Shown: piece by piece, positions 1-17,487 of the stretch
How the letters are laid out: each line of letters begins with the position of its first letter
Position numbering within the stretch: position 1 is the first letter of the stretch
IMG/VR virus record: IMGVR_UViG_2734482770_000005
Location: 1-24,191 of that record
DNA from: a virus
Taxonomy: Duplodnaviria > Heunggongvirae > Uroviricota > Caudoviricetes
Strand: one strand, 5' to 3'
Length of the DNA: 24,191 bases
Made by a program: the position numbers and the translations under genes
The notes under the pieces: model-generated
Database searches by the model: none
What the model saw: only the letters and a program-made list of their open reading frames with translations
What the model was told of the DNA's origin: nothing

Positions 1-153
1 ATGAAAAACATTGCAGCTATCAAACGTAATAACCGCAAGATTCACGCTCGTAAGTTCCTGTCTACGCCAGAAGGAAAAGCCTGGCTAGAGCGTAAACAGC
101 GAGAGAACGAAGAAAGAAAACTCCTTAGTGAGTTGAAATGGCTTAAGGATTGA
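1..153 (+). CDS. small basic hypothetical protein (50 aa), possibly the tail of a longer gene starting upstream of the window
   Basis: Open frame from ATG at 1 to TGA at 151-153, Lys/Arg-rich product (MKNIAAIKRNNRKIHARKF...). Not in the ORF track (short). No ribosome-binding site is visible because the window starts here. Confidence 0.2.
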   Translation: MKNIAAIKRNNRKIHARKFLSTPEGKAWLERKQRENEERKLLSELKWLKD

Positions 154-718
154 ACCACCAGTAGGCGCATAACACATCCAGCGATCAAAGATGTGTTTAT
201 GCACCTGATAGTGAAATTATTAAAGTCGTTTAGTTAACATCGCCATTGCTTGAGCAATAATTGCAACAGCGTCCATCTCTTCACTGGAAGCGATGCAAAT
301 GCGGTAACTAATAGCCACAACGAATACATCAATAACGAGAAAGTGAATAGTGTGAAGATGTTTTGAAAGTAAATGCATAACTTCCTCCGGTTTTACGATA
401 GGAAGATTAGAACATGCATTAAATGATGTTACAAGGGTGGTAATTTACCCTAATAGTCTACTATTCACCTCAATCTACGTCAACCAATATTTGATGTAGA
501 TTTAATTTTCTTTTAAAAACAATGTGTTGCAATTTGTTGAATTTTGGGGTTAGGTTGTTTTTTGAACGTTTTCATCAAGTGTAAAGATACGTTTAGCCTT
601 CATAGTGAGTTCAGTTACTGTCTTTTTCTCTGAAATCGGCGCAGACGTGATCAATGTTTAACGCGAAGATCAGCGGCGTCAGGTCCACGCAGCGACAATT
701 CTCAAATATCAGGAGGCA

Positions 719-1276
719 TTACGCTTCCTGCTCTTTCTTGATACGTTGCACCGTCTGTGTGCTGACACTGAAATCTTTTGCTACGCTCCGAATTGATCCA
801 CCATTCGCGAGAGCGGCAACAATTCCCGCTCGATCAATTGCTTTTCCATTACCACGTTTTGCTATACGTCCAGCGGCCTTAGCTGCGGCGATCCCCTCAC
901 GCTGCCGCTCAAGCATCATTTCACGTTCCATTTGTGCCACTGCTGCAAGCACTGTGAGCATCATATTCCCTGCGGGAGAGTTCTTCCCTGTCTTAAAGTC
1001 TTCTTTATGGAAATGCACAGACACGCCGCGCTCTGTTAATTGCTCAACCGTTGCCAGAAGGTCGGCTGTATTACGACAAAGGCGATCAATACTATGGACG
1101 TGTAACACGTCACCCTCCCGCACATAGTTCATCATTGCCTCAAACTGTGGGCGCTGAGTGTTCTTGCCTGACGCTTTATCTTCAAAGACTTTATCAAGAG
1201 TTACTCCAGCTAATTGACGGTCTGTGTTTTGTTGCACAGTCGATACCCTAATGTATCCAATATTAGCCATTTTCAT
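719..1276 (-). CDS. small serine recombinase (resolvase/DNA-invertase family), 185 aa
   Basis: N-terminus IGYIRVSTVQQNTDRQ has the catalytic-serine motif of resolvase/invertase enzymes; C-terminal HTH (GGSIRSVAKDFSVSTQTVQRIKKEQ). Size matches Hin/Gin/gamma-delta resolvase (183-193 aa). Confidence 0.85.
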   Translation of the reverse strand: MKMANIGYIRVSTVQQNTDRQLAGVTLDKVFEDKASGKNTQRPQFEAMMNYVREGDVLHVHSIDRLCRNTADLLATVEQLTERGVSVHFHKEDFKTGKNSPAGNMMLTVLAAVAQMEREMMLERQREGIAAAKAAGRIAKRGNGKAIDRAGIVAALANGGSIRSVAKDFSVSTQTVQRIKKEQEA

Positions 1277-1837
1277 TTTCCTTCTGTGTTGATTTGTGTG
1301 TAGTGATTATTGATCGTGTTGATTAGGTGTGTAAAGGACTTTTTTCACTACGAAATTCGAAGGTTTTTAGTGTGGTGATTTAGCCTGCTTTATCACTACA
1401 CGTCTTGCATGAGAATCATGTAGTTACATTTTGGTAAAATTAGCAAGCTATTAAATAGTGTGTTTATTTTGAAAAAATAATTTTTTGTTGCATTAAAGGA
1501 AACTTGTTCGACAAATAATAGATTGATTTTTAATCAACAATTTCTGATAGTGCTCTGTAAGCCGTATTACACAAGGCTTTGCGAAAGTGATGTAAAAGTG
1601 AAGAAAGCTAACATTGCACTTTTTAAGCTACTTTTCATTGGATTTTTACGTAGGAATTACACAGGGATTAATCATCAATTACATTGAATTTAAGCCTGTT
1701 TTAGATGTTTAATTTTGGTAGCAAGAAACACTTTTAGAAGATCATTGCACAGATGCTATGTGATGATTGGATGTAACGGTAGGTCACTGTGAGCTACCCC
1801 TATCAAGTCTGATACCCGATAAGTATAAATAACACCT

Positions 1838-1931
1838 GGGAAATGAGTTCCGATCTATTTAGGAAATAACCGTGGAAGTGGTTTCCTACCTACCTAGGAA
1901 ATGAGTTCCTATCACCTAGGAAATGATTTCC
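1838..1931. repeat. array of 13-bp GGAA-N5-TTCC dyad motifs (at least 4 copies), putative protein-binding sites
   Basis: ggaaatgagttcc (1838-1850), ggaagtggtttcc (1874-1886), ggaaatgagttcc (1898-1910) and the perfect palindrome ggaaatgatttcc (1919-1931); the last two are preceded by cctag. Confidence 0.5.
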
Positions 1932-2019
1932 GACAATACTATAATTAAACTACAATTAAACTATATAATATAATTCTTTTTTATCTTTATAAGAATAATT
2001 ATAGGGATACCCGTTAGGG

Positions 2020-2093
2020 AGTCTAACGACTATCCCTTAATCTATTGGCATTCGCCAGAACCTTGCACAAGTTAGAGTGTTAGTCGTTAGACT
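2020..2093. repeat. 12-bp perfect inverted repeat pair (agtctaacgact / agtcgttagact) with about 50 bp spacer
   Basis: Arms at 2020-2031 and 2082-2093 are exact reverse complements. A nested 7-bp inverted repeat agggata/tatccct lies at 2003-2009 and 2031-2037. Confidence 0.4.
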
Positions 2094-2793
2094 GCTTGTC
2101 ATAACACATAGTTTTTGTTTGTTGATGTTAGTTAGTAGATCTATGTTCGCTAATGCCGCTCACAACGAATATGTAATCTACTATGTGCAAATAGCCTACG
2201 GCTTGCGTAAGGCTAAATAGTCTTGCGCTGTGCGCTTCAATAGTTCCATTGATGAGGCTTACGCCAATCTAACGATCATCAATCTATTTAAGAGAAAATC
2301 TATTGTGCAATACTCTGACGAGTGCAATAACCTTGTGTGCTACGCGTTAGCGATGTTAGCACATAGACACAGACAACAACCAACAACAAACAAAAAAGAA
2401 AGAATGGTTTTAGTAGTTGAAGGTTAAATAAGTTTCTACCGCTTAAATCAAGCCGTAGGCGAGCTAAACGTATATAAGGCAGGGAAACCTTAGCGGTAAT
2501 AGATTAGCTCATTATAGAGCTTCTGAGGAGCTTTACAGGTATTTTATAAGGTGTCTGAAATTAGAGTTTATCTATCATCTCCTTTTCATATACCTAACAA
2601 ATACAAAATAAGCCCCTTAAATAAACCTCTGGCGAGCTAAACTGTCATTACATAAGGGAATGTATTGTTTTTATCAAAACCTCGTTAGAACGCGTTTTAG
2701 AGAATAAGGAAGAATAGCATCACACAGAAGAGCACGAATTGCTAAGCAAAATCATAACATACTGAAAAATGATCAATATTTTATGGGCGGGGG

Positions 2794-2828
2794 TTGACAA
2801 AAGCCTTTAGTTATGGTAAAGTAATATT
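2794..2828 (+). promoter_or_regulatory. candidate sigma70-like promoter for the + strand gene run
   Basis: Consensus -35 TTGACA at 2794-2799 inside gggggttgacaaaag, with AT-rich -10 candidates downstream (taaagt at 17 bp spacing, taatat further on). About 120 bp upstream of the first well-supported + strand ORF. Confidence 0.3.
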
Positions 2829-2945
2829 AGGGACAGGAAAACATTCCTATCCTCTAAATAATTAAACCAATGCACCGCACTTTGAAGCCCAAGAGGCTTG
2901 CAAGGTGTCTTTTTCTTTTAACCAAATAGAATAGGAGGTTAATTA

Positions 2946-3122
2946 GTGAAGTATTTCACTTCTCAAGATGTAGTTGAAGCCTGGAAACGTGGTGAGATCA
3001 ACCGCTTTAGGGTAAGAATGAATAGGAACACAGCGCGACGCTGTGGTTATCCAGAGCGTGAAAAATGTTTTGACGATGCACTAAAAATTATTGATGAACT
3101 GCGTAAAGCAGAGAAAGAATAA
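2946..3122 (+). CDS. hypothetical small protein (58 aa, GTG start)
   Basis: aggagg ribosome-binding site at 2932-2937, GTG at 2946, in-frame to TAA at 3120-3122; product VKYFTSQDVVEAWKRGEINRF...ELRKAEKE. Absent from the ORF track because of the GTG start. Confidence 0.4.
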   Translation: MKYFTSQDVVEAWKRGEINRFRVRMNRNTARRCGYPEREKCFDDALKIIDELRKAEKE

Positions 3123-3145
3123 TAACAGGAGAAGGAGAAAACCAA

Positions 3146-3334
3146 ATGAATATTAATTTTGATTCTGCAACTTATAACGCGTTGTTAAATCGTGCAAAGG
3201 CAGAAGGGAAATCAATTCCAAAACTTGTTAATGAATTACTAATTACAGTCCTTACAAAGGAGGAACTAAATGATCAAAAATATCAAAACAATTGCCGAAG
3301 CGAAAGCCAAATGTCTAAATCAGAAAGATGGTAA
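3146..3334 (+). CDS. small DNA-binding protein, ribbon-helix-helix (CopG/Arc-like) fold suspected
   Basis: Ribosome-binding site ggagaaggag then ATG at 3146. N-terminal MNINFDSATYNALLNRAKAEGKSIPKLVNELL fits a beta-strand plus helix pattern typical of RHH regulators. The 3' end overlaps the next gene's strong start at 3270. Confidence 0.45.
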   Translation: MNINFDSATYNALLNRAKAEGKSIPKLVNELLITVLTKEELNDQKYQNNCRSESQMSKSERW

Positions 3335-3938
3335 ACAAAAATATGTAGTCGTTGAGCAGTGGTTGAAGATGTTTAAAAAGTGGTTCTCACCGTCAGGTAA
3401 TGAATACACCGCTACACTGCCAGCCGTTGAAATCTATAGCTATATAGCTGGATTCAATGAACAAGGGCAAGAATGTTACGCCACTCAAAAAACATTATCT
3501 AATATTGGAATGGTTAGTGATCGCCAGGTTCGCAATATTATAAATATGTTTGTTGATATGGGAGTTCTTTCTGTAGAGGCTCGGGACGGGCAAACATCAC
3601 TCTATAAAGCATTACCATTCACAGATGCACATATTACTCCCCCTGGAGAGTCATCACTACCTGATCCTTCTGAGAAAGAAGACGAATCTAATGAAATATT
3701 GAATGTTTCCGAAATCATCGTTGAAGAAGAAACACAAGAGCCAGAGTTCCCTGAGCGGCCCGAAATTTTTACTTGGCTTCTTTCCCTTGATAAGAAGAAA
3801 CCACCGCACGAAGAAACAGAAGATTTTGTAAAACGAGCATTAGATTCAAAGAATATCTATCTTTGTGAAAATGATTTTGACTCTTTGATAATTGATCTCA
3901 AAAGTGAGAGCACAATATATGATTCACTACCCTTTTAA
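3270..3938 (+). CDS. hypothetical protein with N-terminal winged-helix-like DNA-binding region and acidic C-terminal tail (222 aa)
   Basis: Strong ribosome-binding site aaaggagg 6 nt upstream of ATG. The segment YATQKTLSNIGMVSDRQVRNIINMFVDMGVLSV looks like an HTH recognition helix; the C-terminus is Glu/Asp-rich. Confidence 0.55.
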   Translation: MIKNIKTIAEAKAKCLNQKDGKQKYVVVEQWLKMFKKWFSPSGNEYTATLPAVEIYSYIAGFNEQGQECYATQKTLSNIGMVSDRQVRNIINMFVDMGVLSVEARDGQTSLYKALPFTDAHITPPGESSLPDPSEKEDESNEILNVSEIIVEEETQEPEFPERPEIFTWLLSLDKKKPPHEETEDFVKRALDSKNIYLCENDFDSLIIDLKSESTIYDSLPF

Positions 3939-3947
3939 GGAGAATAA

Positions 3948-4205
3948 ATGGCTTATAACATCACTATAGGAAACAAAACTATTGAAATAACTGAAAGCGG
4001 ATACAACATTTTAAAAGCTATTTTGGACATAGAGTTCTCACCGCCGACAGTGGTTAGCTTTTGTAGTTTAGGCGGCTACAGCGCACAACACGTCAATCGT
4101 TTTACATCGTTCGGTGTGCTGGATTATGAAGGGATTAACAGCACTACATTTCGTCTTTTGAAATTAAACAAAGATTTTGAATTGTTTCTCACAAACAATC
4201 AATAA
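3948..4205 (+). CDS. hypothetical protein (85 aa)
   Basis: Ribosome-binding site aaggag immediately upstream; tightly packed after the previous gene. Confidence 0.5.
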   Translation: MAYNITIGNKTIEITESGYNILKAILDIEFSPPTVVSFCSLGGYSAQHVNRFTSFGVLDYEGINSTTFRLLKLNKDFELFLTNNQ

Positions 4206-4302
4206 CAACAGATCGGGCAATACATATGGCAAATGCATTTATGGCGATATTCATCGTAACAATGGCGTCCAGTTTTTATAATCCACATAAAAAGAGGGAA
4301 AA

Positions 4303-4686
4303 ATGGGAAGAAAGAAAAAGAACAACTTAAAACGTATTGAAAAAAACAGTAATTTCAATTCAAAAAGACAACGTCCACCGACACACACCAATAACGAAAT
4401 TCCAGGGGAAGAGATAATCTTTATTCTTGAAACAGAATCCCCTGAATTAAGTGATGAAGAATTAGAAATAATCCAATCAATGCCAGGCGTTTACTTTCGC
4501 CCAAGAACAAGAAAACAAACTATCATTTCTGATGGCACTCTGAAACGTTGGCAGCTTTTAGGGTTTAGCTCCTATCATCATTTTTTGGGATTTAACGCTT
4601 TCAATAATTGTGTAGGTGGTGCATCGGAAGTCGATCTGATGGCTCATTTAGAAGATACATTAGCTTCTAACAAACGTTCTAACTAA
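4303..4686 (+). CDS. hypothetical protein (127 aa) with very basic N-terminus
   Basis: agaggg ribosome-binding site upstream of ATG; N-terminus MGRKKKNNLKRIEK... Confidence 0.45.
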   Translation: MGRKKKNNLKRIEKNSNFNSKRQRPPTHTNNEIPGEEIIFILETESPELSDEELEIIQSMPGVYFRPRTRKQTIISDGTLKRWQLLGFSSYHHFLGFNAFNNCVGGASEVDLMAHLEDTLASNKRSN

Positions 4687-4701
4687 TAAAATGATGGGTG
4701 T

Positions 4702-4947
4702 ATGTATAAGCGCCCAATGAAAATATTCAAAAAAGGAAAAATAATGATTGGCTATATTCAAGAAACACAATTATTTCAGATGATCCTGTCTGATGCAAAA
4801 AACTATGCAGAGTTAATTCGGCTGGCAAAAGAAACAGAAGACTACGAAGCATTAGAGCGTTACCGTGATGAAGTGCTGACGCTCAAGACACCTTTTAACA
4901 TCGTATTGAATATGATTAATGATGCATTACAAGGAGAATACGCATAA
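4702..4947 (+). CDS. hypothetical protein (81 aa; alternative start at 4744, MIGYIQ...)
   Basis: ORF in track; the internal ATG at 4744 is preceded by aaaaaggaaaaa. Stop overlaps the start of the next ORF (ATAATGG). Confidence 0.4.
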   Translation: MYKRPMKIFKKGKIMIGYIQETQLFQMILSDAKNYAELIRLAKETEDYEALERYRDEVLTLKTPFNIVLNMINDALQGEYA

Positions 4948-5246
4948 TGGAAGAAGATATTAGCAATGCAATGGAACAACTTTTAGATCTGACTATCTCA
5001 CTACAAACAAGAATAAATCAAGCCTATTCAGATTTATGCGATTACACGCTCTCTCAATGCGTTATTAGCTTAATGAAGGTGAATGTAAGCCTTGACGATT
5101 TTATCTCTCTGGTGAGCGTATCAGAGGACGATGCAAAACAGTGTAATCAAATCATCACAGACATCGCCACCACGTTAAAGGTTGCAAGTGAAGAGATTCA
5201 GCAATTAGTAGATGATTTAGCAAAAAGTGCTATTTTCTCTAAATGA
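4947..5246 (+). CDS. hypothetical protein (99 aa)
   Basis: aaggag ribosome-binding site upstream; start overlaps the previous stop, suggesting an operon. Confidence 0.5.
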   Translation: MEEDISNAMEQLLDLTISLQTRINQAYSDLCDYTLSQCVISLMKVNVSLDDFISLVSVSEDDAKQCNQIITDIATTLKVASEEIQQLVDDLAKSAIFSK

Positions 5247-6188
5247 TAATGAAAATTATTTGCATTTATAATGATTTTGTTATATAATAATTTTAGGGGT
5301 AGATAAAAAGATTTTAGTTGGTGTTAATCCTTCTACTGTCATAAATCCCTGCATATGGAAGGTGATAGCCTCAAAGGTTGAGTGGCATTAACCTCTAACA
5401 AATATTACCTTCCATCTCTCAAGAAGTTTTAGAATAATCATAACTCCCTCTTTGATTGTTGATTGTTTCTACGTTGTGTTGATGAATGTTGTTAGGCATT
5501 GTGCTTAATTTTGATAAAAGCGGGTAGGTGTTATCTCCTTGCCCTTCCCGCTCTTATTTTTCATCTATGCTTATCCTAAAGCTCCTTATTTTGTCAGAAA
5601 ACATTAAAGAGCCTTACACTGATAGTTATATTTTATAACTATTTACTAACATCATTAAACTATTATTTAATGACAGAAGTTAGTAACAGAATAATCTATT
5701 AAGTTGTTGTCAAAAACAATCATCTGCATAGCGTTAGCCGCAAGCAGAGAGAGTTTAGCTAAGAATGGTGCAATAAACTTTGGAAATATTGATAGCAAAA
5801 CGGGTTTTATAGAATGCGGATCTATAAGCTTTGGTTGTAAAAACGATTTTCTGAAACGGTAGATTACTGTTGGTGTAGTTAATCATTATTAAAAATTTAA
5901 TCTGTGAGTAGATTGGAATAGTGATTCCTTAAAATCTGACTGGTGCATCCACACCATGAAAGATAGCGGTTGGCCACCGCGCCCCGAATAGATATTCCTG
6001 ATTGATTCCGCATGTTTTCCTAAGAGCATGTTTTCAGGAGTATCTATTCACCCTTTAAGCATATCATCAAGTATATTTAAAAAGTGTATTTGCTGATATG
6101 TTTAATCCTCTTATAGTTTAACTTATCAATTATGTAATTGCCCGCACGTTAAAGCCCCTTTGCTGGTCAGAATTAACCTCTTACGGCA

Positions 6189-6428
6189 TTGGGGCTTTTT
6201 ATTTGTCTGGCACTAACAGGAACATTATTTATGAAACAAGAAATGATTATCAGCAAAGACGGGGAAACGATGATTGTTAGTGATGAAAACCTCATTAAGG
6301 TTGCCGCACTGTTGGGAGTTACTCCCGAAAGTCTTCGTTCTACCACTGCTCAATTATTTAAATCGGCTGATGCGGTTAGTCTTGCTGATGCCCTTAAATC
6401 TAAAATTAAACAACTGAAAGGAAAATAA
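6189..6428 (+). CDS. hypothetical small protein (79 aa; more likely starts at 6231, MKQEMII..., 65 aa)
   Basis: ORF in track; in-frame ATG at 6231 follows aacaggaac. Confidence 0.45.
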   Translation: MGLFICLALTGTLFMKQEMIISKDGETMIVSDENLIKVAALLGVTPESLRSTTAQLFKSADAVSLADALKSKIKQLKGK

Positions 6429-6432
6429 TCTT

Positions 6433-6816
6433 ATGGCTAACCCATATGGAAAATTAAAAGCAGTGAATGCGGATAACTCCCGTTCACGCTGTAAGGTAGT
6501 AGCTTACGCTGCTGATCCAGTGCTGCAAGATCGCCTCGTCAAACTGGCTTCACCTCTCACTGACGATCTTATTGTCGGGGCTTTGCTGAAAGCCGATGGC
6601 ACCAAAGCAACAACCGCATCTGATATTGCTCACGTAGTAGTTGAACCGGCTTATGAAGGACAGGAAAGCGTAGTGGTTGCACATCCTACTTTCGTTATTC
6701 TGGCTGAAGATGGGATTGAATTTAACAGCATGGAAAAGGCAAGTGTTATTGCAAAACTGCAATCTCTCGGCTTTGTAATTGCTGGTTATGAAGAACTTGC
6801 GATCCCTACGACTTAA
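6433..6816 (+). CDS. hypothetical protein (127 aa), first gene of a structural-like block
   Basis: Ribosome-binding site aaaggaaaa; 4 bp after the previous stop; same strand and tight spacing as following genes. Confidence 0.55.
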   Translation: MANPYGKLKAVNADNSRSRCKVVAYAADPVLQDRLVKLASPLTDDLIVGALLKADGTKATTASDIAHVVVEPAYEGQESVVVAHPTFVILAEDGIEFNSMEKASVIAKLQSLGFVIAGYEELAIPTT

Positions 6817-6830
6817 CAAGGAAAATAATA

Positions 6831-7862
6831 ATGAATGATTTATCAACATATTTTGGCGTTAATACTGCGGTAGTAACTCCATTTGCTTATGAGAATGCAC
6901 TTAATACCCTGATTACTAATCTCGATCTGTTCGATGTGCAATATCATACAGAAAACAGCATTCTTCTTACCGACCTGATTGATCAGTTTGTGCAGGTAGC
7001 TGGGGAAACCTCGCCTTACGCTCAAAGCGACTGGAACGCCTCTAAACGTCAGGAATGGTCAAACAAACTTTTCCAGATGAAACACGTCGGCAGTATTAAC
7101 GCTGTTACTTCTCGTGACCTGGAACAATACAGCCGCCAATATCCAAACCGTTCTGATGCTATGCTGGTAGCGGTTAATGATTTCTCTGAGGCTCATTACC
7201 GTTCACACGCAAACCGTGTTGAAGTGGATCTGATTACCGCGCTGCTGGGCCTGAAAGTTGAATCTGAATATGCCGGACAAGGTGATCTCGACTTCCTCGA
7301 CGGTCAGGCTAAAACCACGGTACCCGCTATCGACTTTGCATCGACTACTGTTAACCCGTTCCTTGCTATTCGTAAAGCGGTGCGCTTACAGAGTGAAAAG
7401 CTGGGGTCTGGTCTTGCTGCAAAGCGAACTGGTGTAATTATCTTTGCTGCTGGCACTGCTGCTGATGGTTTGTCATCTAACCCGCTGATCAGTGACATGG
7501 TGAAATATGCAGGCGATGCGAGTGCTACGGCCCTGTTTACCCGTATGGTTGATTCTAACCCAGCCTATGACTCTTTCCAGATTGGTGGGATCACTGTTAT
7601 TGATGTGTCAATGTTTCCTGAGATTGTTGCTCACATCGGAGAGAACGGTTTCGCAATTGTTCCGGTAATGGATAAAGCGGCACAGTGTTACCAGCTTCAT
7701 AGCGGCGTTGGTGTGCGTCATGCTGAGTTAGGTCAAGATGCCGTGTTGCATCACCAATATCTAATCAAGGATGAATTCCAATTCCCATCTGTGGTTACTG
7801 AGACATCTTATCTGCCAGTAAACAACATTCCGCAAGCTATCATCTTCGGATCTGCTGCGTAA
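6831..7862 (+). CDS. hypothetical protein (343 aa), possible virion or structural component
   Basis: Ribosome-binding site aaggaaaa; long uninterrupted ORF with a different codon and GC profile from the P4 part. No catalytic motif recognised. Confidence 0.6.
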   Translation: MNDLSTYFGVNTAVVTPFAYENALNTLITNLDLFDVQYHTENSILLTDLIDQFVQVAGETSPYAQSDWNASKRQEWSNKLFQMKHVGSINAVTSRDLEQYSRQYPNRSDAMLVAVNDFSEAHYRSHANRVEVDLITALLGLKVESEYAGQGDLDFLDGQAKTTVPAIDFASTTVNPFLAIRKAVRLQSEKLGSGLAAKRTGVIIFAAGTAADGLSSNPLISDMVKYAGDASATALFTRMVDSNPAYDSFQIGGITVIDVSMFPEIVAHIGENGFAIVPVMDKAAQCYQLHSGVGVRHAELGQDAVLHHQYLIKDEFQFPSVVTETSYLPVNNIPQAIIFGSAA

Positions 7863-8013
7863 TAAAGCGTTAATAGACGATTCCCCATCGGGGCAATAAG
7901 GGTAAAGGGATTAACTAACCTGTAGGCGCAAATACAGTAACGAATCTCTTTGCCCTTTTTGTTTTTCTACTGTCTACAAACCCAAATAAAAATATATATG
8001 TGAGAGAAAACCA

Positions 8014-8211
8014 ATGAATACAGAAAACCCACAATCCTTTATTCTTAAGGCTGTAAAAGAACTGGCAGCTATTAGCGAGGAATCAGTTATAAACACATCG
8101 GCGCTTTGCCGCCTTTTAGAAATTGATGCAAATAATGTGCGCCAGCGTGTCTTTCAGACTGGGTGCAGCACTTTCGAAGCAATTCAATACTATTGCTCTA
8201 AAAAACAATAA
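8014..8211 (+). CDS. hypothetical small protein (65 aa)
   Basis: ORF in track in the gap between two larger + strand genes; weak ribosome-binding site. Confidence 0.3.
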   Translation: MNTENPQSFILKAVKELAAISEESVINTSALCRLLEIDANNVRQRVFQTGCSTFEAIQYYCSKKQ

Positions 8212-8245
8212 TAAACAACAATCATAATACAGGGAAACAATTAGC

Positions 8246-10087
8246 ATGTTAGAACTTAACGTCAGCCGCTTATCAAACGTTGTCACCTTCCAGGTTGATC
8301 GACCATCATTAGAGAAAGCAAAAGCAGAAGTAGAAAAACTTCGTAAACAAATGGCGGCGGTGAAAGATATAGAATTGCGTGTTAAGACACATAAACAATC
8401 AACTTCTAAAGCAAAAAAAGACGTAGACGATATTGCTAAAAAGCAAGCACAGGCAGATAAAGCCAATGCTAAAGCACAATTAGCCGCTCAACGTGTAGTT
8501 GCAAGAGAACAAAAAGCCCTGGCAGCACGCAAAGAGAAGGCAGACTTAAAACTGTTAGACGTTGGATCAAGCATTAGTGCATTGCACCGCCTTTCTGTAG
8601 CGGAACAATATAAAGCTATTGCACAGGCTAGAGAAATTGCCCTCCAATATGAAAGAGGAGCTATTAGTCTGGCACGTATGAATAGCCAAATGAAACGCCT
8701 ACAACAGCAACAACGTAAGATTAATGGCAATCGTAACGCTCACGCTAAAGCCTATGCACCTGTTAAGGGTAGCGGGAGTATTGGCGGCGGTGCTGCGGCT
8801 GTTATGCTGGGTGGCTTAGGCGCTGGCGCTACGTATATGGCTATGAGCAAAGCCTCTGAATTTGTTACTAACAGCTTTGCGAATGCTGAAACGCTGGGTG
8901 AATTGTATAGCCGTGCGAAGCTGGGCGGTGTAGACGTTAACCAGATGAACAATATTGAGCAATGGGCCTACAAAAACGGCGTTGATTCAATGATGGGGGA
9001 TCAAGGTAAACGTAAGTATCTCGATCAGATGAAAGATGTGCGTGAGCGTGCAACCAAAAGCTATGATGAGGCTGAATATGTAGTCGATAAAAAAACAGGC
9101 AAAGGTGAATGGAAGGGCGGCGATAGCGGCATCAATACTTTAATGAATGAAGGATTCTTAACTAAAAAGGATCTAAAAGACTTTGCTGATAATCCGGCTG
9201 GTCTGGTTAGTAAAGCAGTTCAGGGAATGGTGAAGAAAGGCTATTCAGATGCACAAATCGGTAGTCGTCTGGAAGATCTGGCTGATGATTTGATGCTCAC
9301 CTCTAAATACTGGACACGCTCCGCTAAAGAAGTGGAACAATCAGCACGAGAACAACGAGAATCAGGGCGCTGGGTAACACAGGCACAACAGGAAAGCGTT
9401 ATTAAATTCCGTGAACTGAATAATGCACTTAGTGGGCTTTCTGACTCACAAGGGATCGCCTTTGTTGATGGCTTTATGAAATCTCTTGATCCGAAAGTGA
9501 TTGAAGAGTTTAAAAAGAGCATGGTTGCAATGCTGCCAATGTTTACCAAATTAGGCGAGGCTATCGGCGGATTGGTTAACGCCGTAATGAAAACAATCAA
9601 CTGGCTGATGAAAAACGACGAGAAGACGGAAGCTATTCAGAAGAATTTAGGGGATGCACCGCCACTATCTAACGAAGGAATGAAGCAGAATCTTTCTAAT
9701 CTCACTCCTGATCAATATAAAGGCGCTGGCACCGGAACAACTAAGCCAGATAACAGCAATTCCCTGGTTAACACTATTAAAAGCTGGTTTATGCCAGAAG
9801 AAACGGTAGGTGGGGCGCAGGCTGTAAATCAATACAGTCTCGAAGGACAAAACATTGCAAATCTGAAACAGAGTGCAGCACAACAAGCTTTCAAGGCTCC
9901 TTCTTACACCTTTGCACCTGTTATTAACTTCAATCCAGAATTACAAGTAAATGCAGAAGTGCCGCTAACTATCGAATCAGACACCGGACGATTGAGCGAA
10001 TTTATCGACTTCAAATCAAAGGCATCCTCCGCTGAGTTTAGCAAGCTATTAACGCTGGGTGTTATGTCAGGCGGGTCAACCTATTAA
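8246..10087 (+). CDS. large coiled-coil protein with Gly/Ala-rich hydrophobic segment (613 aa); tape-measure-like or membrane-associated structural protein
   Basis: N-terminal 150 aa are Lys/Ala/Gln/Glu-rich heptad-like sequence (EKAKAEVEKLRKQMAAVK..., KAQLAAQRVVAREQKALAARKEKADLK); then GSGSIGGGAAAVMLGGLGAGATYMAM, a glycine-zipper-like hydrophobic stretch. Confidence 0.6.
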   Translation: MLELNVSRLSNVVTFQVDRPSLEKAKAEVEKLRKQMAAVKDIELRVKTHKQSTSKAKKDVDDIAKKQAQADKANAKAQLAAQRVVAREQKALAARKEKADLKLLDVGSSISALHRLSVAEQYKAIAQAREIALQYERGAISLARMNSQMKRLQQQQRKINGNRNAHAKAYAPVKGSGSIGGGAAAVMLGGLGAGATYMAMSKASEFVTNSFANAETLGELYSRAKLGGVDVNQMNNIEQWAYKNGVDSMMGDQGKRKYLDQMKDVRERATKSYDEAEYVVDKKTGKGEWKGGDSGINTLMNEGFLTKKDLKDFADNPAGLVSKAVQGMVKKGYSDAQIGSRLEDLADDLMLTSKYWTRSAKEVEQSAREQRESGRWVTQAQQESVIKFRELNNALSGLSDSQGIAFVDGFMKSLDPKVIEEFKKSMVAMLPMFTKLGEAIGGLVNAVMKTINWLMKNDEKTEAIQKNLGDAPPLSNEGMKQNLSNLTPDQYKGAGTGTTKPDNSNSLVNTIKSWFMPEETVGGAQAVNQYSLEGQNIANLKQSAAQQAFKAPSYTFAPVINFNPELQVNAEVPLTIESDTGRLSEFIDFKSKASSAEFSKLLTLGVMSGGSTY

Positions 10088-10134
10088 TCATCACTGTGGG
10101 GCTGTTTAGCCCCCTTAAATAAGGATTACAAATT

Positions 10135-10812
10135 ATGGCAATGGGTCCGTTAACCATTGGTCGCCCGACTGAGGCGAAAATCAACAGCACAAGCAACGAT
10201 AGCAACGGTAGAACAACCAAAGGGGGTAACGGCTTTGCGATCATTACCTCTAATCTCGGCAGTGGTGCAAATGCTGCTTACAATGACTACCAGGCATTAT
10301 CATTTGATAGCGTGGAATCGACGAAAGTTAGCAGAAATGCGGACGTTACAAGCTATGCCGTCGAATCAGGATCAGAAGTTAGTGATCATGTTCAAATACG
10401 GAATAACAAGTTCACATTACAAGGGCGTATCTCTGAAACCGTATTGAAGCTCAATCCTGATATGATTAAGAATGCTGGAATTAACGGCAATCGACGTATG
10501 CTTATGCTTGAATACCTAAATCAGTTGATGGACAGTCGCCAACCTTTCCTACTTGTCACTGAGTTAAAAAATTATGACAACGTTGTGTTAGTTGGCATGT
10601 CTTACGAAGAAGAAGCAAGCGAAAGCCTATTGTTTACTCTTGATTTTGAGCAAATCCGTCTTGTCTCTAAAGCAACTACAAGCGCAATTGCGGTAAAAAC
10701 AGCACCAAATAAATCTGTAGGAGGCCAGGTTAAAATGCAGGTAAATACAACAGAACAGAAAAATCAAAAAAGCCCAGGGCAAGACGTTGTAACGCCAGTA
10801 TTTAAACAATAG
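10135..10812 (+). CDS. hypothetical protein (225 aa)
   Basis: aagga ribosome-binding site; follows the 613 aa gene after a short hairpin-containing gap. Confidence 0.55.
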   Translation: MAMGPLTIGRPTEAKINSTSNDSNGRTTKGGNGFAIITSNLGSGANAAYNDYQALSFDSVESTKVSRNADVTSYAVESGSEVSDHVQIRNNKFTLQGRISETVLKLNPDMIKNAGINGNRRMLMLEYLNQLMDSRQPFLLVTELKNYDNVVLVGMSYEEEASESLLFTLDFEQIRLVSKATTSAIAVKTAPNKSVGGQVKMQVNTTEQKNQKSPGQDVVTPVFKQ

Positions 10813-10853
10813 CCTTAAACGCCTATGAAACGCTCTGTAACGAGATAATCATA

Positions 10854-10885
10854 AAAGAGGCATCAGTCTATATTGAAGCCTCTTT
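10854..10885. terminator. hairpin between convergent genes, candidate intrinsic terminator (best fit for the - strand integrase transcript)
   Basis: Perfect 8-bp stem aaagaggc / gcctcttt around a 16-nt loop; on the - strand the stem is followed by a U-rich run (uuuuaugauuau). Confidence 0.4.
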
Positions 10886-10892
10886 ATTACGT

Positions 10893-12257
10893 CTATAGCG
10901 TTGTTTTACGCCTTAAATTTGATTTTTTATTGATTGATAAGCCTTTCTCTATTTCAGGGTAGCGTAAAAGCTCAATATATTTTTTAAGCTCTATTGGAGA
11001 AGCTGCATTTTTGCTATATGTGCGGAATGTTTCTGTATTGCCGCGTGTATGGCCCAGGAGAAGGGCGATCCTGTCTTCTGGAATTTGATTTCGATCAAGA
11101 AGCTGTGCTACTCCGTGTCTCAGAGAATGAAACACTTTCCTTTCTGTTCCCTTTTCCCCTAAAGCCTTTCGTTTAGCTCTTGTAAATCGTTGTGTATGCC
11201 ACGTAGAGCGTTTACCGTCAGCACGTTCTGTAATGCTGGCGTGATAGAACAAAAAGCCATTGTGAGGCTTTTCACGCAGCGACAACACCAACGGAGTGAT
11301 AAGGTTATGCACAGGCACAACACGTGCCGCAGCTTTCGTCTTTCCCTGTGTGATTTCAAAACACAGCACACCTTCGATCTCTTTCACATCGTCTATTGTG
11401 AGACTTGCTATCTCATTGATCCGCATACCTGTATATAAACCGATAAGACACAAAGCCGTCATTTCTTTGTTTTCTGCTGAATTACCGGAAAATACTTGCA
11501 ACACCTGCAATAGCTCTTTGTTAGAAAATGCCTCGTAGCTCTCTCTACTTTGTGCCACATCAAGCCTATGCCCTCGCCAGGGGGAGAGCGCCCTTTCTGG
11601 CGCATCGTGGTAACGTGATGAAGCTAATTCCCATAGCTGGGCCATTGGACTGATATAATTTGCAATTGATTGTTGTGAAAGAGTTTTTTGCATGTGTTCA
11701 ATCCAGCCTGTAACAGTGGTGCGGCTTACATCTTGCAATGCAATATCAGGCTTTTTACGGTAGGAGAGAAACATCTCTACCGCTTTTCTTGCCTTAGCTA
11801 AAGTGGCTGGCTTCTTCTTCGTGCTGTTAATTGTCAGGTAGATTTCAAGAATTTTAAGCAATGACGGACACGAAGACGCTGTATCTTGCACTCTGGTAGC
11901 TGTTTTGGCGTATTTAGCCTTACTGCGTAACAGTTCCAGCGTGTTTTCTATTGTGCTGTTTACAGGGGCAACACTCTCCCGTAAGCAATGGTATTCATCT
12001 GCAATCTGATCACGCTTTCTACGTGCAACACGAAGATTACTTGTGTGTAGACTTCTGACAAACGTCCTTTTTCCTTCAAAAAAGGGCTGCATATACACAG
12101 GCAGCGTGATCCTTAAATAGTAGTTACCGTAAGAATCACAGATTAAGTATTGGTTAGGCTTGTATCTCATAAAATCTCCGGCTAAAGTGTCGGAGCGTTT
12201 GTAATGTGAAAATTGATTGTGACGCATAGAAAATGATGATTTTTCTATAAGATTCAA
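10893..12257 (-). CDS. tyrosine recombinase / phage-type integrase (454 aa)
   Basis: C-terminal catalytic region carries integrase signatures: GMRINEIASLTIDDV, HSLRHGVAQLL (H-x-x-R box) and LLGHTRGNTETFRTYSKN (tyrosine nucleophile region). Confidence 0.8.
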   Translation of the reverse strand: MNLIEKSSFSMRHNQFSHYKRSDTLAGDFMRYKPNQYLICDSYGNYYLRITLPVYMQPFFEGKRTFVRSLHTSNLRVARRKRDQIADEYHCLRESVAPVNSTIENTLELLRSKAKYAKTATRVQDTASSCPSLLKILEIYLTINSTKKKPATLAKARKAVEMFLSYRKKPDIALQDVSRTTVTGWIEHMQKTLSQQSIANYISPMAQLWELASSRYHDAPERALSPWRGHRLDVAQSRESYEAFSNKELLQVLQVFSGNSAENKEMTALCLIGLYTGMRINEIASLTIDDVKEIEGVLCFEITQGKTKAAARVVPVHNLITPLVLSLREKPHNGFLFYHASITERADGKRSTWHTQRFTRAKRKALGEKGTERKVFHSLRHGVAQLLDRNQIPEDRIALLLGHTRGNTETFRTYSKNAASPIELKKYIELLRYPEIEKGLSINKKSNLRRKTTL

Positions 12258-12314
12258 TCAATTAGTAATGGTCGTAGGTGATGGCATTAACACGAGATTA
12301 ATCGAGTGTTTTAC

Positions 12315-12332
12315 TCCTATTATCGGCACCAT
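12315..12332. repeat. candidate attL core of the P4-like element (direct repeat of 23639-23655)
   Basis: tcctattatcggcaccat here matches tcctattatcgcaccat at 23639-23655 with one 1-nt indel; both copies sit at the expected outer edges (int side and crr side). Confidence 0.4.
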
Positions 12333-12495
12333 CTCCACTTCTTCAAACATCCGTATTTATCCATAACCGCACTGTTTTATAAAAGATTTTTTGTTTTTAC
12401 TGTTCGTATTAGTCCATAACTTTCCAGTAGAATCCAGTACTAAATGTGTATAGGATTATGTATATGTTCCTGTTCGATTTTGGAATTCTATACAC

Positions 12496-13680
12496 ATGCC
12501 CCTAAATGATATGCAGATTCGCCGTGCTAAACCTGAAGCTAAAGCCTATACACTTGGGGATGGGCAAGGGTTGTCTTTACTTGTAGAGCCAAATGGAAGT
12601 AAAAGCTGGCGATTTCGTTATCGCTATGCCGGTAAACCCAAAATGATCTCGCTTGGTGTTTACCCAACGATCACTCTTGCTGATGCTCGTTCCCGTCGTG
12701 ATGAAGCTCGAAAACTTGTGGCAGAAGGAAAGAACCCTAGTGAGGTTCGAAAAGAGCAAAAGCTGGCTCTGCAAACAGAGTCAGAGAACGCCTTCGAAAA
12801 GATAGCCAGAGAGTGGCATCAACAGAAGTCTACCAAATGGTCGGCGGGATATGCATCAGACATCATGGAAGCGTTTAAGAACGACATTTTTCCTTATGTG
12901 GGAACAAGGCCAGTGGGAGAGATTAAACCGCTAGAACTGCTTAATGTGCTGCGTAAAATCGAAAAGCGCGGTGCATTAGAAAAAATGCGCAAAGTTCGGC
13001 AGCGATGCTCAGAAGTTTTCCGCTATGCCATTGCTACTGGAAGGGCTGAGTTTAACCCTGCTGCGGATCTTTCAAGCGCCCTCAATGTACACCAATCAAA
13101 TCATTTCCCGTTCTTAAAGGCTAATGAGATACCTGATTTTCTTCGCGCCTTAAACGGATATACCGGAAGTCGGCTTGTCCTGATTGCCACGAAATTGCTC
13201 ATGATTACAGGTGTTAGAACCATCGAATTACGTGCGGCATTATGGTCAGAATTTGATTTAGATAACGCTATTTGGGAAATTCCTGCTGAAAGGATGAAAA
13301 TGCGCAGATCACACCTTGTGCCTTTGTCGACTCAAGCGTTAGATTTGCTAAATGAACTCAAGATGATGACAGGGAAGTATAGTTATGTTTTTCCGGGGCG
13401 GAACGATCCGAACAAGCCTATGAGTGAGGCGAGTATTAACCAAGTTATCAAGCGTATTGGTTATGGTGGAAAACTTACTGGTCATGGATTTCGACATTCC
13501 TTATCTACTATCCTCCACGAAAAAGGATATGATTCGGCTTGGATAGAAATACAGCTTGCTCATATAGATAAGAATAATATTAGAGGTACGTATAATCATG
13601 CTCAATATATTGATAAACGCCGTGATATGATGCAGTGGTATTCAGATTATATTTTTATTAAGGAGAATGTGAATGAGTAA
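12496..13680 (+). CDS. int: P4-type tyrosine integrase (394 aa)
   Basis: N-terminal arm-binding region typical of P4/CP4-57 integrases (MQIRRAKPEAKAYTLGDGQGLSLLVEPNGSKSWRFRYRYAGK); C-terminal catalytic motifs HGFRHSLSTIL and LAHIDKNNIRGTYNHAQYIDKRRDMMQWY. Confidence 0.9.
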   Translation: MPLNDMQIRRAKPEAKAYTLGDGQGLSLLVEPNGSKSWRFRYRYAGKPKMISLGVYPTITLADARSRRDEARKLVAEGKNPSEVRKEQKLALQTESENAFEKIAREWHQQKSTKWSAGYASDIMEAFKNDIFPYVGTRPVGEIKPLELLNVLRKIEKRGALEKMRKVRQRCSEVFRYAIATGRAEFNPAADLSSALNVHQSNHFPFLKANEIPDFLRALNGYTGSRLVLIATKLLMITGVRTIELRAALWSEFDLDNAIWEIPAERMKMRRSHLVPLSTQALDLLNELKMMTGKYSYVFPGRNDPNKPMSEASINQVIKRIGYGGKLTGHGFRHSLSTILHEKGYDSAWIEIQLAHIDKNNIRGTYNHAQYIDKRRDMMQWYSDYIFIKENVNE

Positions 13681-15301: not shown

Positions 15302-16038
15302 TATCTGAATTAACGTTTTCTCGAAAATTCACTTCATTTTGGAATCAATTGCTTCCAAATGCTAATAATTTCATACGCATCATTAACGGCAGTCTCATCG
15401 AGGACGTTTATCCTCCTCTAGATGACTGCGCTAATAGGTCAAATAACGTCTTTGTTAATGAGTGCGCATTTAATTTATATAGGGCAATACAGAATGATTC
15501 GTTAGACAGAAATATTCTTTCAGCACATGATATCTTCCATAATGCTGATTTTCAGGTTGTTTTTGAAAAAACAAAAGAATATCTACAGCGGTTCGCTTAC
15601 GGTTCTAACTTCAAGCTACCCTTAAGCATGGTTGAGTACAATGCCATAAGGGAAATAGCAAGAAACATTTTGTCTCGATATGGAATGGAAAACCAAATTG
15701 AAGTGTCTCCACAATTCGATGGATGCGGAGTAATAAATAATTCATATGGCGATATTTATTATTCAAATGTTCTTGTGGAAATAAAATCAGGAGATAGGAA
15801 GTTTAGTGTTTACGATCTTAGACAGGTGCTAATATATTTCACTTTAAACTTTTACTCAAAAAACAAAAGAAACATCAAGAGATTTGAGCTTTTCAATCCT
15901 CGGATGGGTATCACTTATAGTGATACCATTGTCAACCTTTGCAAAGAGTTGGCGTTTATTCAACCTGAAGAATTGTACTTTGAGATAATGAATTCTATTA
16001 CAGAAGAAAATTTCATAGTAACTGAAATGCAACGCTAG
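15298..16038 (+). CDS. RT-associated accessory protein (246 aa), putative effector; function unknown
   Basis: ATGA start/stop overlap with the RT gene (translational coupling). Soluble, no obvious transmembrane segment. Weak motifs: R-x5-H (DRNILSAHD) and D-x11-E-x-K (GDIYYSNVLVEIK). Confidence 0.6.
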   Translation: MISELTFSRKFTSFWNQLLPNANNFIRIINGSLIEDVYPPLDDCANRSNNVFVNECAFNLYRAIQNDSLDRNILSAHDIFHNADFQVVFEKTKEYLQRFAYGSNFKLPLSMVEYNAIREIARNILSRYGMENQIEVSPQFDGCGVINNSYGDIYYSNVLVEIKSGDRKFSVYDLRQVLIYFTLNFYSKNKRNIKRFELFNPRMGITYSDTIVNLCKELAFIQPEELYFEIMNSITEENFIVTEMQR

Positions 16039-16986: not shown

Positions 16987-17487
16987 TCATTCCAGACGCA
17001 GCGAATATGATTGTGTTTTTAAGCGTACTGGCGGCAGTTCCTGTTTTTCATGCAGGCTTTCTGCCAGTTCGTCCGGCGTGACCGGGCGGACAATGAAGCG
17101 GTTGATGGTCTGAAGCGTTTTAAACACCAGACCACAGCCCGGATCCGTGCACACATAAAAACGCTCGGTGACTTCCTGAGACAGACGCCGCGATGTTCTT
17201 GACAGTGCAAGGCCTTTACATCTCCGACAACAATATCCGGTAACAAGCATTCTTTTCGGGCGTTTCATACTGCCGGAGGCTGACGTCAGTGAATCGCGGT
17301 ATCTCTGTTTGCCTGAAATGTATTCCATTCCTGAATCTTTACAGTCAGAGAAAAAGCTTTCACTCGCTTCAAATGTCGCAGAGCAATAAATATTCCGGCA
17401 CTGTGCAATCATTATCTTGGTGCCATCGTCCATGAAATGTGCGCGACGGGTGTGAGCAACATGTCCACACGACGGGCAGTAAATCAT
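16987..17487 (-). CDS. delta: P4 Delta late-gene activator (Ogr/Delta zinc-finger family), 166 aa
   Basis: Two Cys-rich Ogr-like modules (CPSCGHVAH...CRNIYC and CCRRCKG...CTDPGC); 166 aa as in P4 Delta; overlaps the sid stop by 4 nt. Confidence 0.85.
   Translation of the reverse strand: MIYCPSCGHVAHTRRAHFMDDGTKIMIAQCRNIYCSATFEASESFFSDCKDSGMEYISGKQRYRDSLTSASGSMKRPKRMLVTGYCCRRCKGLALSRTSRRLSQEVTERFYVCTDPGCGLVFKTLQTINRFIVRPVTPDELAESLHEKQELPPVRLKTQSYSLRLE

Follow-up and report, generated by a model that had tools for sequence, protein, structure and literature searches.

We analysed a stretch of 24,191 nucleotides (the window; positions 1 to 24,191 of IMG/VR record IMGVR_UViG_2734482770_000005), which is Escherichia coli chromosome at the tRNA gene thrW, the site taken in K-12 by the cryptic prophage CP4-6. 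Integrated there is an element of 12,975 bp whose late genes encode a major capsid protein, a decoration-like protein, a tail tape-measure protein and a Dit-like tail-tube initiator, and in whose other open reading frames (ORFs) no further virion gene family was found. On balance, we judge it probable that this element is a satellite belonging to a new family that exploits phages of the Stephanstirmvirinae. The features by which satellites are generally defined are present in part: the element has attachment (att) sites, an integrase, a Rep-like protein and iterons, and its set of virion and packaging genes is incomplete. Coordinates are those of the window unless the label of another locus (L001 and so on) is given with them.

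The element and its gene block

The element is flanked by 20 bp direct repeats of the 3′ end of thrW, and a recombinase gene lies near each end.

attL, thrW tRNA-Thr 3′ end: 626 bp to the left of window position 1, at L001 12477-12496 (the window starts at L001 13102)
attR, thrW 3′-end direct repeat ACTCCTATTATCGGCACCAT: 12313-12333; also the left junction of an adjoining P4-like satellite
Small serine recombinase, 185 aa, resolvase plus helix-turn-helix (HTH): 719-1276, minus strand; PF00239 at 1.1e-38
IntF-like tyrosine integrase, right end of the element: 10893-12257, minus strand; PF00589, DUF6538 and Phage_int_SAM_5; annotated in L001

L001 is a 99.7% identical copy in E. coli STEC1588. 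The longest ORF of the integrase is 454 aa and the NCBI call is 425 aa; generic Xer-type recombinase models for this protein were the only NCBIfam matches among the element proteins. The initial annotation, made from the letters alone, had proposed a compact integrative element with a serine recombinase and an integrase at its flanks, and the att repeats at a tRNA gene, the integrase and the family matches of the two recombinases agree with that proposal.

Between the recombinases the same annotation had placed a tight, AT-rich block of at least 12 same-strand ORFs with good ribosome-binding sites. The ORF listing gave 13 on the plus strand from 2946 to 10812 (58, 62, 222, 85, 127, 81, 99, 65, 127, 343, 65, 613, and 225 aa; the first 65 aa ORF, at 6231-6428, becomes 79 aa if a TTG start is used), 12 of which were called by NCBI in L001, and Shine-Dalgarno sequences can be seen, such as AGGAGG ahead of 2946 and AAGGAGG ahead of 3270. 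Over the element as a whole the GC content is 40.0%, and in the early genes 36.6%, as the description of the block as AT-rich requires. The block is tight in part only, as it has gaps of 985 bp of non-coding DNA at 5247-6230 and of 150 bp at 7863-8013. Its last four large genes (127, 343, 613, and 225 aa) were described correctly; an extra ORF of 65 aa (8014-8211) lies between the 343 aa and 613 aa genes.

The structural module

The late genes have the following assignments, all on the plus strand.

Decoration (cement)-like protein, 127 aa: 6433-6816; position and size of a phage head-decoration gene
HK97-fold major capsid protein, 343 aa, lambda gpE / Phage_cap_E lineage: 6831-7862; by profile and fold
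Protein of 65 aa: 8014-8211; by synteny, the position of the small ORF that precedes the phage tape-measure gene
Tail tape-measure protein homologue, 613 aa: 8246-10087; phrog_16051 at 3.4e-34
Dit-like tail-tube initiator, 225 aa, annotated 'phage baseplate protein': 10135-10812; PF21821 at 1.2e-27

The 343 aa protein is an HK97-fold major capsid protein of the Phage_cap_E type. The window protein itself falls below Pfam detection and matched a major-head family, phrog_29, weakly (5.5e-5); PF03864 (Phage_cap_E) is present in its homologues at 42-48% identity, and a profile of the capsid family aligned over 235 columns with the PHB05 phage capsid protein (hhalign, E 1.4e-5). Foldseek, which had been suggested as a check on this protein, gave with the model of the 343 aa protein 18 top PDB matches that were all phage capsid proteins, those of PhiTE (1.5e-9), ICP1 (coat protein, 3.6e-9), Bas63, and Sf14 leading. 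For the 127 aa protein, hhalign found little profile likeness to the phage decoration protein (probability 7.5%). With its AF2 model (pLDDT 69.7) the top eight Foldseek matches were all decoration chains, from the capsids of Sf14, PhiTE, and Bas63 (E 0.014-0.09, TM ~0.55), and after these eight nothing fell below E 1.4. At the level of the fold this protein is probably capsid decoration-like.

The tail assignments rest on closer matches. The 613 aa protein, which the initial annotation had likened to a tape measure, matched a tape-measure profile, is collinear over its full length with the tape measure (651 aa) of Phapecoctavirus phiWec190 (E 2e-40), including the Gly/Ala-rich hydrophobic stretch, which aligns with the equivalent stretch of the phage protein, and is encoded directly upstream of the tube initiator. 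The Dit_like score of the 225 aa protein was 97 bits against a Pfam cut-off of 24.2. Scans with Pfam, PHROG, and NCBIfam detected no portal, terminase, protease, connector, sheath, tube, or baseplate family in any ORF of the element, and no homology of the block to housekeeping genes was found.

Relation to Stephanstirmvirinae phages

The phage homologues of the module belong to one lineage. Matches to the tape measure occurred in 134 phage records, all of them, among the matches listed, phages of ~130-153 kb and mostly Stephanstirmvirinae; most of the Dit-like matches likewise lay in large myoviruses of ~130-155 kb. In phages PHB05, phiWec190, and Mt1B1_P17 the head-tail module has the order decoration, capsid, ~10 neck, sheath, tube and chaperone genes, small ORF, tape measure, tube initiator, and the element retains the first two and the last three of these genes with the order unchanged. 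The 127-343-613-225 block thus has its counterpart, in the same order, in PHB05 and phiWec190, which together with the capsid and decoration folds and the tape-measure and Dit homology sustains its earlier description as a structural module. The 65 aa protein at 8014-8211 had no detectable sequence similarity to the phage ORF in the equivalent position.

Identity to the phage homologues increases along the module, from the capsid protein (~21%) through the tape measure (26-33% for the window protein, over nearly its full length) to the Dit-like protein, which is 49-53% identical to the protein encoded next after the tape measure in phages of the genera Phapecoctavirus and Justusliebigvirus. 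The tape measure of a Klebsiella relative is nearer the phage proteins (33-40%). In a collection of 50,697 phage records the only direct matches to the capsid protein were weak ones in Aeromonas phages (E 2e-3, 25% identity).

At the nucleotide level, DNA of the early region of the element was found, at 93-98% identity, in only 8 of these 50,697 records, which represent six phages, all Stephanstirmvirinae. Identity of 93-99% with these six genomes indicates recent co-residence of element and phage in one cell.

Smaller similarities were also seen. An 18 nt string, GGGGCTTTTTATTTGTCT, is identical in the terminator before the element capsid gene (6191-6208) and in the PHB05 terminator after the tape-measure gene (L002 ~10210-10230); the motif CACTAACA follows the former terminator and likewise the terminator behind the phage capsid gene. 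The common string may be due to chance or may be a common regulatory signal. The tRNA cluster of Mt1B1_P17 (L118 44212-46131) includes tRNA-Thr and tRNA-Gly, both of which are attachment-site species of the element family, a match that may be coincidental.

Putative replication module and phage chimeric nucleases

The DNA that the element has in common with these phages belongs to its early region, to the left of which lies a non-coding block.

Non-coding block of 1.7 kb, candidate origin or operator: 1277-2945; contains the iterons and the early promoter
Three 22 nt iterons with core TAGGAAATGAGTTCC: 1834-1855, 1892-1913, and 1914-1935
Sigma-70-like early promoter, TTGACA-17-TAAAGT: 2794-2822
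Putative small DNA-binding regulator, 62 aa: 3146-3334, plus strand; 98% identical to Bas60_0101 of phage PaulScherrer (98.2% in nucleotides over 167 nt)
Winged-helix Rep-like initiator or regulator, 222 aa, allele A: 3270-3938, plus strand; HTH_36 and replication-initiation phrogs

The 222 aa protein matched HTH_36 at 5.5e-5, under the Pfam cut-off, and the replication-initiation families phrog_270, 186, and 8102; the 62 aa protein is putatively ribbon-helix-helix-like. The iteron gave five matches over both strands, at the three iteron sites, where 0.06 would be expected by chance, and the surrounding DNA (1801-2250) has a fold z, as RNA or single-stranded DNA, of -4.5, with the same feature at the equivalent place in the Klebsiella locus L003 and the Raoultella locus L018. 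Among the relatives of the element, each Rep allele is paired with an iteron sequence of its own at the same place in the element. The window iteron is absent from the first 50 kb of phage Mt1B1_P17.

In four of the six phages the shared DNA is part of one gene, and in the three examined this gene lies at the same early locus. Its product joins two Rep-type DNA-binding domains to a nuclease-like domain.

Mt1B1_P17 gp053, 328 aa: L007 2225-3211; domain 1 is 98-100% identical to the L040-type Rep, domain 2 is 88-90% identical to the window Rep
muut gp094: L119 1130-2128; domain 1 is 66-74% identical to a third allele (L095, L012, L096), domain 2 is 91% identical to the window Rep
inny_184: L120 1019-2122; domain 1 is ~87% identical to a fourth allele (L029, L035, L039, L043), domain 2 is 91% identical to the window Rep

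The DNA-binding domain of the window Rep (aa 30-122) thus recurs in the chimeras at 88-91% identity, and taken together their DNA-binding domains are 66-100% identical to four Rep alleles. For the first domain of gp053 the nucleotide identity to the L040-type Rep is 99.2% over 353 nt; the C-terminal domain of gp053 matched phrog_681 (endonuclease) at 2.4e-18. Phages PaulScherrer and VEcB carry DNA 98% identical to the gene for the 62 aa regulator, and the PaulScherrer copy (Bas60_0101, L008 2515-2700) lies at the locus of the chimeric genes. The variable early locus of Stephanstirmvirinae holds either a chimera of two Rep domains and an endonuclease or a copy of the satellite regulator.

Phage ICP1 encodes the nuclease Odn, in which a DNA-binding domain like that of PLE RepA is fused to a T5orf172 nuclease and which cuts the PLE origin (PMC8263062). 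By analogy, the chimeras appear to mirror the design of Odn against PLE. We infer from these sequences that the phages meet the elements inside cells and are selected to disable them, and that the chimeras may have an anti-satellite role that includes binding and cleavage of the iterons.

The family, its circular forms, and exchange of tail cassettes

A search with the capsid gene gave ~100 loci in Enterobacteriaceae, in E. coli, Klebsiella, Citrobacter, Enterobacter, Kluyvera, Raoultella, Kosakonia, Phytobacter, Buttiauxella, Scandinavium, Pluralibacter, and E. albertii. The conserved core consists of the Rep-like gene, a 127 aa early protein (4303-4686), decoration, capsid, and tape measure, and a Dit gene occurs in the E. 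coli types as well as in some other members. The ORFs of relatives are intact at 30-50% amino-acid identity. Nearly all chromosomal copies with enough flanking DNA have an integrase, the type of which varies by lineage, as do the tRNA sites. Repeats of tRNA 3′ ends bound every member checked, 12.69 kb apart in Klebsiella (tRNA-Gly), 14.26 kb in the second E. coli type (tRNA-Gly), 12.97 kb in Raoultella (tRNA-Thr), and again 12.97 kb in the element of the window, so that the unit length is 12.7-14.3 kb across genera and insertion sites.

The 8 kb block was present at at least 80% coverage in 140 of 5,426 complete E. coli genomes (~2.6%), and any part of it in 698; a circular-type relative gave matches in 642, and ~12% of the genomes carry some relative. 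Had the block occurred in all related genomes and away from the recombinases, the integrative element proposed at the outset would have been in doubt; as it is, the integrase adjoins the block among the matches listed and in L001.

In three E. coli assemblies, relatives that lack the large integrase form whole contigs (L025, 13,786 bp; L026, 13,624 bp; L023, 14,263 bp). Joining the ends of L025 and of L026 restores an intact tape-measure ORF of 615 aa, in frame, which shows that this DNA is circular or concatemeric. In all three contigs a DEAD/DEAH-helicase-like protein of 492-495 aa with a C-terminal HTH replaces the small winged-helix Rep, and they appear to be plasmid-like or replicative forms. 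PLSDB contained no small plasmid of this type; its full-length capsid-gene matches were two Klebsiella plasmids of 120 kb, one E. coli plasmid of 166 kb, and one record of 4.9 Mb. Among the IMG/VR matches none was virion-derived, all being prophage calls from isolate genomes except for one derived from a metagenome, and metagenomic or Logan contigs of 11-18 kb had no terminal overlaps.

Among E. coli elements with 99-100% identity in capsid and decoration genes, the tail genes define two groups. The tape measure is either 97-100% or 26-27% identical to that of the window, and the Dit that follows it either 99% or 53%. The two cassettes were seen at L040 11071-13702 and in the same region of L032, L034, L041, L042, and L044-L048; the alternative one (633 plus 218 aa) is ~30% and ~60% identical to the phage proteins. 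Identical capsid genes next to divergent tail cassettes demonstrate that head and tail modules recombine independently, and such exchange would fit the tracking of, or escape from, different helpers.

The structured leader before the late genes

The large gap in the gene block has the organization of a structured leader.

Structured non-coding leader: 5247-6230, plus strand; promoter, ~0.9 kb without an ORF, and a terminator-like hairpin ahead of the structural module
Sigma-70-like leader promoter: 5259-5288; consensus TTGACT-17-TATAAT in relatives
Highly structured leader core: ~5860-6140; fold z -7.9 for 5860-6215
Intrinsic-terminator-like hairpin with T-tract: 6151-6205; directly before the first late gene
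Counterparts of the leader: L006 8526-9402; L003 8855-9395; L018 8850-9450

Fold z values of the leader were -6.7 to -9.0 relative to shuffled sequence, whereas coding controls of the same length gave -1.4 to +1.5. The second E. coli type (L006, L025, L023, L026) has little primary sequence in common with the window here and yet forms the same series of hairpins with compensatory changes: GCGGU/ACCGC in the window is GCGAU/AUCGC in the second type, the interior of a 16-17 bp stem is wholly different between the types and still paired, and in L025 an A-to-C change is balanced by U-to-G on the facing arm. With effectively two sequence groups to compare, this covariation is suggestive and not statistical. 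L003 and L018 likewise have their z minima in the origin block and in the leader, at corresponding positions, and keep the order of promoter, leader, and terminator.

The two non-coding blocks, which jointly make up 20% of the element, had no Rfam match at gathering or E-value thresholds. A scan for promoters and terminators was not enriched relative to shuffled sequence, and the sites named here are based on position and on conservation in relatives. A motif like an anti-Shine-Dalgarno sequence, CCUCCUAAG, occurs in the leaders of L003 and L006 and in part in the window (CCUAAGAGC). From the predicted folds, we propose the leader (0.4-0.9 kb) as a candidate for a new large structured RNA.

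Proposed mechanism

For the mechanism and ALTERNATIVES, observed and inferred points are kept apart below. The element resides integrated at thrW by means of its IntF-like tyrosine integrase, and its near relatives occur as circles of 13.6-14.3 kb without that integrase. Its replication would begin with transcription of the early operon from the sigma-70-type promoter, yielding the small regulator and the winged-helix Rep-like protein; the latter would read the allele-specific iterons in the 1.7 kb block and drive replication of the excised circle, and the small serine recombinase would likely resolve multimers of that circle.

The late module is preceded by a strong promoter, the 0.9 kb structured leader, and a terminator, an arrangement that suggests that read-through or RNA structure probably controls late expression when a phage infects. 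As this module comprises only decoration, capsid, tape measure, and initiator, the portal, protease or scaffold, terminase, neck, sheath, tube, baseplate, and fibres would come from a helper. The likely helper is a Stephanstirmvirinae myovirus, a Phapecoctavirus or Justusliebigvirus of ~150 kb, which is virulent. Dependence on such a helper is suggested indirectly, by the recent exchange of DNA with six phages of this group and by the Odn-like chimeras in their genomes. The shell proteins of the element would form a small capsid sized for ~13 kb, while its tape measure and initiator would start the growth of tails on baseplates of the helper. On the side of the phages, the endonuclease chimeras with DNA-binding domains copied from satellite Rep alleles would act as a counter-measure.

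We tentatively put forward, with slightly less than even confidence in the whole, that this is the first satellite family with its own shell (capsid and decoration) and its own proteins for tail length and tube initiation, which takes the rest from a virulent 150 kb myovirus of Enterobacteriaceae; that tail cassettes and Rep/iteron modules are exchanged in an arms race in which the phages stack captured Rep domains on one nuclease; and that a new leader RNA of 0.4-0.9 kb gates the late genes.

Several observations weigh against this account. The decoration assignment depends on weak Foldseek E-values (0.014-0.09), and the AlphaFold model of the capsid protein is of low confidence (pLDDT 58.5). 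The capsid protein is only ~21% identical to that of the phages, and its fit with the portal, scaffold, and protease of a helper is an assumption. The element yielded neither a pac or cos site nor a terminase-redirecting protein, and its non-coding blocks have no DNA similarity to any phage, so that no common pac, cos, or promoter sequence can be demonstrated. The nuclease motifs of gp053 lie under the Pfam thresholds (MUG113, 21.2 bits versus a cut-off of 22.3; T5orf172, E 0.037). Many members outside E. coli are without the Dit gene, and a role for Dit is accordingly not universal. Finally, we know of no precedent for a satellite with its own tape measure, and the benefit of one is unexplained.

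Alternative explanations

The homologues of capsid, decoration, tape measure, and initiator could instead be dominant-negative decoys that ruin the heads and tails of Stephanstirmvirinae, in an island that poisons phage assembly and is kept for protection of the host population without travel in virions. That these homologues are specific to one phage lineage, that the phages carry apparent counter-measures against the element, that the tail cassettes are exchanged as though tracking targets, and that relatives bear Shedu or Imm_superinfect as added cargo would all be expected of such an island; interference with tail assembly is, according to one report (PMC11364771), a known defence strategy of mobile elements and so provides a precedent. 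The constancy of the unit length at 12.7-14.3 kb over genera and sites suggests a packaging constraint instead, the full-length pair of capsid and decoration genes, at 40-50% identity over many genera and with the fold intact, resembles a working shell, and the existence of circles and of functions for autonomous replication suggests that the element is first amplified and then exported. No PADLOC model matched any early-region protein (2946-6428), which also speaks against such an island. We regard the decoy explanation as unlikely, noting that it overlaps in part with that of a satellite, as PLE does both.

The helper or donor might also be an unsampled phage group, for example a temperate relative, of which the element would be a satellite or a defective virus, with Stephanstirmvirinae only distant kin. 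Low identity to the sampled phages (capsid ~21%, tape measure 26-33%) would follow naturally, and the family occurs also in genera that may have no such phages. This is difficult to reconcile with the 93-99% nucleotide identity to six Stephanstirmvirinae genomes and with the chimeric nucleases in these same phages, and no other phage among the 50,697 records matched the tape measure better. We consider an unsampled helper doubtful.

A decayed prophage remnant without present function, which the initial annotation had named beside a satellite, is very improbable and was rejected as contradicted by the comparative data: although the element sits at the site of the K-12 cryptic prophage CP4-6 beside intF and most of its genes are hypothetical, the same reduced 13 kb set of genes, in the same order and size, recurs intact in many genera at different tRNA sites with different integrases, which excludes independent prophage decay, the relatives of its structural genes are virulent 150 kb phages that do not integrate, 99.7% identical copies are found in unrelated strains, and circular forms exist. 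The satellite-like half of that earlier description is the one we favour.

Comparison with known systems

The Vibrio cholerae phage satellite PLE and its helper ICP1 provide the nearest functional parallel. Both PLE and the element are small and integrative, and the probable helper of the element, like ICP1, is a large virulent myovirus; an allele-specific initiator with iterons serves replication in PLE and probably in the element; in both systems the phage has a chimeric gene, that for Odn in ICP1 (PMC8263062) and those for the putative nucleases here, with a DNA-binding domain copied from the satellite initiator; and the element and ICP1 have capsid and coat proteins of one structural lineage (8g1r). 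PLE encodes no capsid or tail proteins and is reported to remodel the ICP1 coat with the scaffold TcaP (PMC10002752), whereas the element encodes both capsid and tail proteins. The host of the element is Enterobacteriaceae and its integrase a tyrosine recombinase, in contrast to the large serine integrase of PLE, and the chimeras hold two captured DNA-binding domains where Odn holds one. Pfam and PHROG scans found neither a RepA_N match nor a PLE-specific protein (TcaP, NixI and others) in the element, and its resemblance to PLE is functional only.

With the P4-like satellites the element has in common a length of 11-13 kb, integration at tRNA genes, cargo hotspots, and probably replication of its own, with an optional plasmid state, and a protein that decorates the capsid, which in P4 is Psu. 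Window positions 1-12333 contain none of the P4 markers, namely alpha primase-helicase, Sid, Psu, Delta/Ogr, and a P4-type integrase. P4 differs further in that both its capsid protein and its whole tail are supplied by the helper, the temperate phage P2. With the capsid-forming phage-inducible chromosomal islands (cf-PICIs) the element shares an HK97-fold major capsid protein of its own instead of remodelling of a helper capsid. In cf-PICIs the module for heads and packaging is complete, with portal, protease, connectors, and small terminase, and tail genes are absent, whereas the element has only capsid and decoration together with two tail proteins; no portal, protease, connector, or terminase family was detected in it, and tape measure and Dit are present.

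The closest likeness in gene content is to the head-tail module of the Stephanstirmvirinae themselves (PHB05, phiWec190, Mt1B1_P17), with its order of decoration, capsid, intervening genes, small ORF, tape measure, and initiator. Across the element family the tube initiator is 49-61% and the tape measure 26-40% identical to the phage proteins, the latter over nearly full length, and the capsid is related by profile and fold. The element differs from these phages in keeping 4-5 of more than 25 structural genes, in a shorter tape measure (613-633 aa versus 651-662 aa), and in integrating, at 13 kb versus 150 kb.

Because the defining genes of the P4-like satellites, PICIs, cf-PICIs, and PLE were sought and not found, the element is none of these. 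To our knowledge, no satellite family has a capsid gene without portal and terminase plus genes for a tape measure and an initiator; only P4-like, PICI, and cf-PICI satellites are recognised in E. coli and Klebsiella, and we know of none described there that exploits large virulent phages. No prior description of the element was found in the open-access literature that was searched. We incline to the view that it represents a new satellite family.

Phage satellites shape phage resistance and gene transfer. Phages of the genera Phapecoctavirus and Justusliebigvirus serve as laboratory models and are candidates for therapy (the locus tags of PaulScherrer identify it as Bas60), and, if our reading is right, a resident element that hijacks or blocks such phages would alter host range and the outcome of treatment. 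A tape measure and initiator encoded by a satellite would further mean that tails, and not just heads, can be customised by a parasite, and the multi-domain chimeric nucleases would extend the Odn principle of ICP1 to coliphages and serve as a ready bioinformatic marker for satellite-helper pairs. The hypothesis is directly testable, since E. coli is readily manipulated genetically, the element is present in sequenced isolates, and the lytic coliphages in question have been isolated.

Other features of the element and its neighbourhood

The remaining genes of the element are small.

Left arm: 1-378; two small ORFs, 1-153 (plus strand) and 220-378 (minus strand), where relatives carry cargo
Early protein, 58 aa: 2946-3122, plus strand; kept in E. 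coli, Klebsiella, and Raoultella members (tblastn identity 34-79%)
Protein of 85 aa: 3948-4205, plus strand; annotated in L001
Core early protein, 127 aa: 4303-4686, plus strand; basic N-terminal motif M-G/S-R/K-K-E/K-R-N; kept family-wide
Two small acidic helical proteins, 81 and 99 aa: 4702-5246, plus strand; E. coli-type members only
Protein of 65 aa, first gene of the late module: 6231-6428, plus strand; annotated in L001; 57-59% identical in the second E. coli type

The 58 aa protein had no match in Pfam, PADLOC, or NCBIfam, and the 85 aa protein none in Pfam, PHROG, or PADLOC. Tblastn identity of the 127 aa early protein was 28-54% in most loci, and in 13 members Pfam gave no match to it beyond a chance-level one to OCRE (E 0.047). 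PADLOC found no defence system among the proteins encoded at 2946-6428.

The arm between attL and the small recombinase holds variable cargo, a Shedu-type SduA_C in L121 (941-1954) and Imm_superinfect in L025-L028 (L025 1762-1986), and recalls the defence hotspots of P4-like satellites. The positional counterpart of the small serine recombinase in L003, L023, and L121 is a tyrosine recombinase of 186-189 aa (PF00589).

In K-12 MG1655 (L009, 292322-297096) CP4-6 ends with yagK, yagL (resolvase-like), yagM, yagN, and intF at the thrW att site; it has the attachment site and the IntF type of integrase in common with the element, and not the capsid and tail block.

A second island follows in tandem in the window, from 12334 to ~23655 at the attR copy of thrW, and is a P4-like satellite.

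P4-type integrase: 12496-13680
Psu: 16341-16913, minus strand
Delta: 16987-17487, minus strand
ORF of 266 aa in the position of Sid, no family match: 17484-18284, minus strand
C4/isrK RNAs: 19095-19380
Alpha primase-helicase, 777 aa: 20831-23164

It is closed by a degenerate third att copy (~23636-23654), beyond which the yagP flank resumes. Its hotspot (13673-16038) contains a DRT8 defence system, in which the reverse transcriptase matched Drt8 at 4.9e-166 and the 246 aa partner matched RTasPDDEXK at 5.5e-69.

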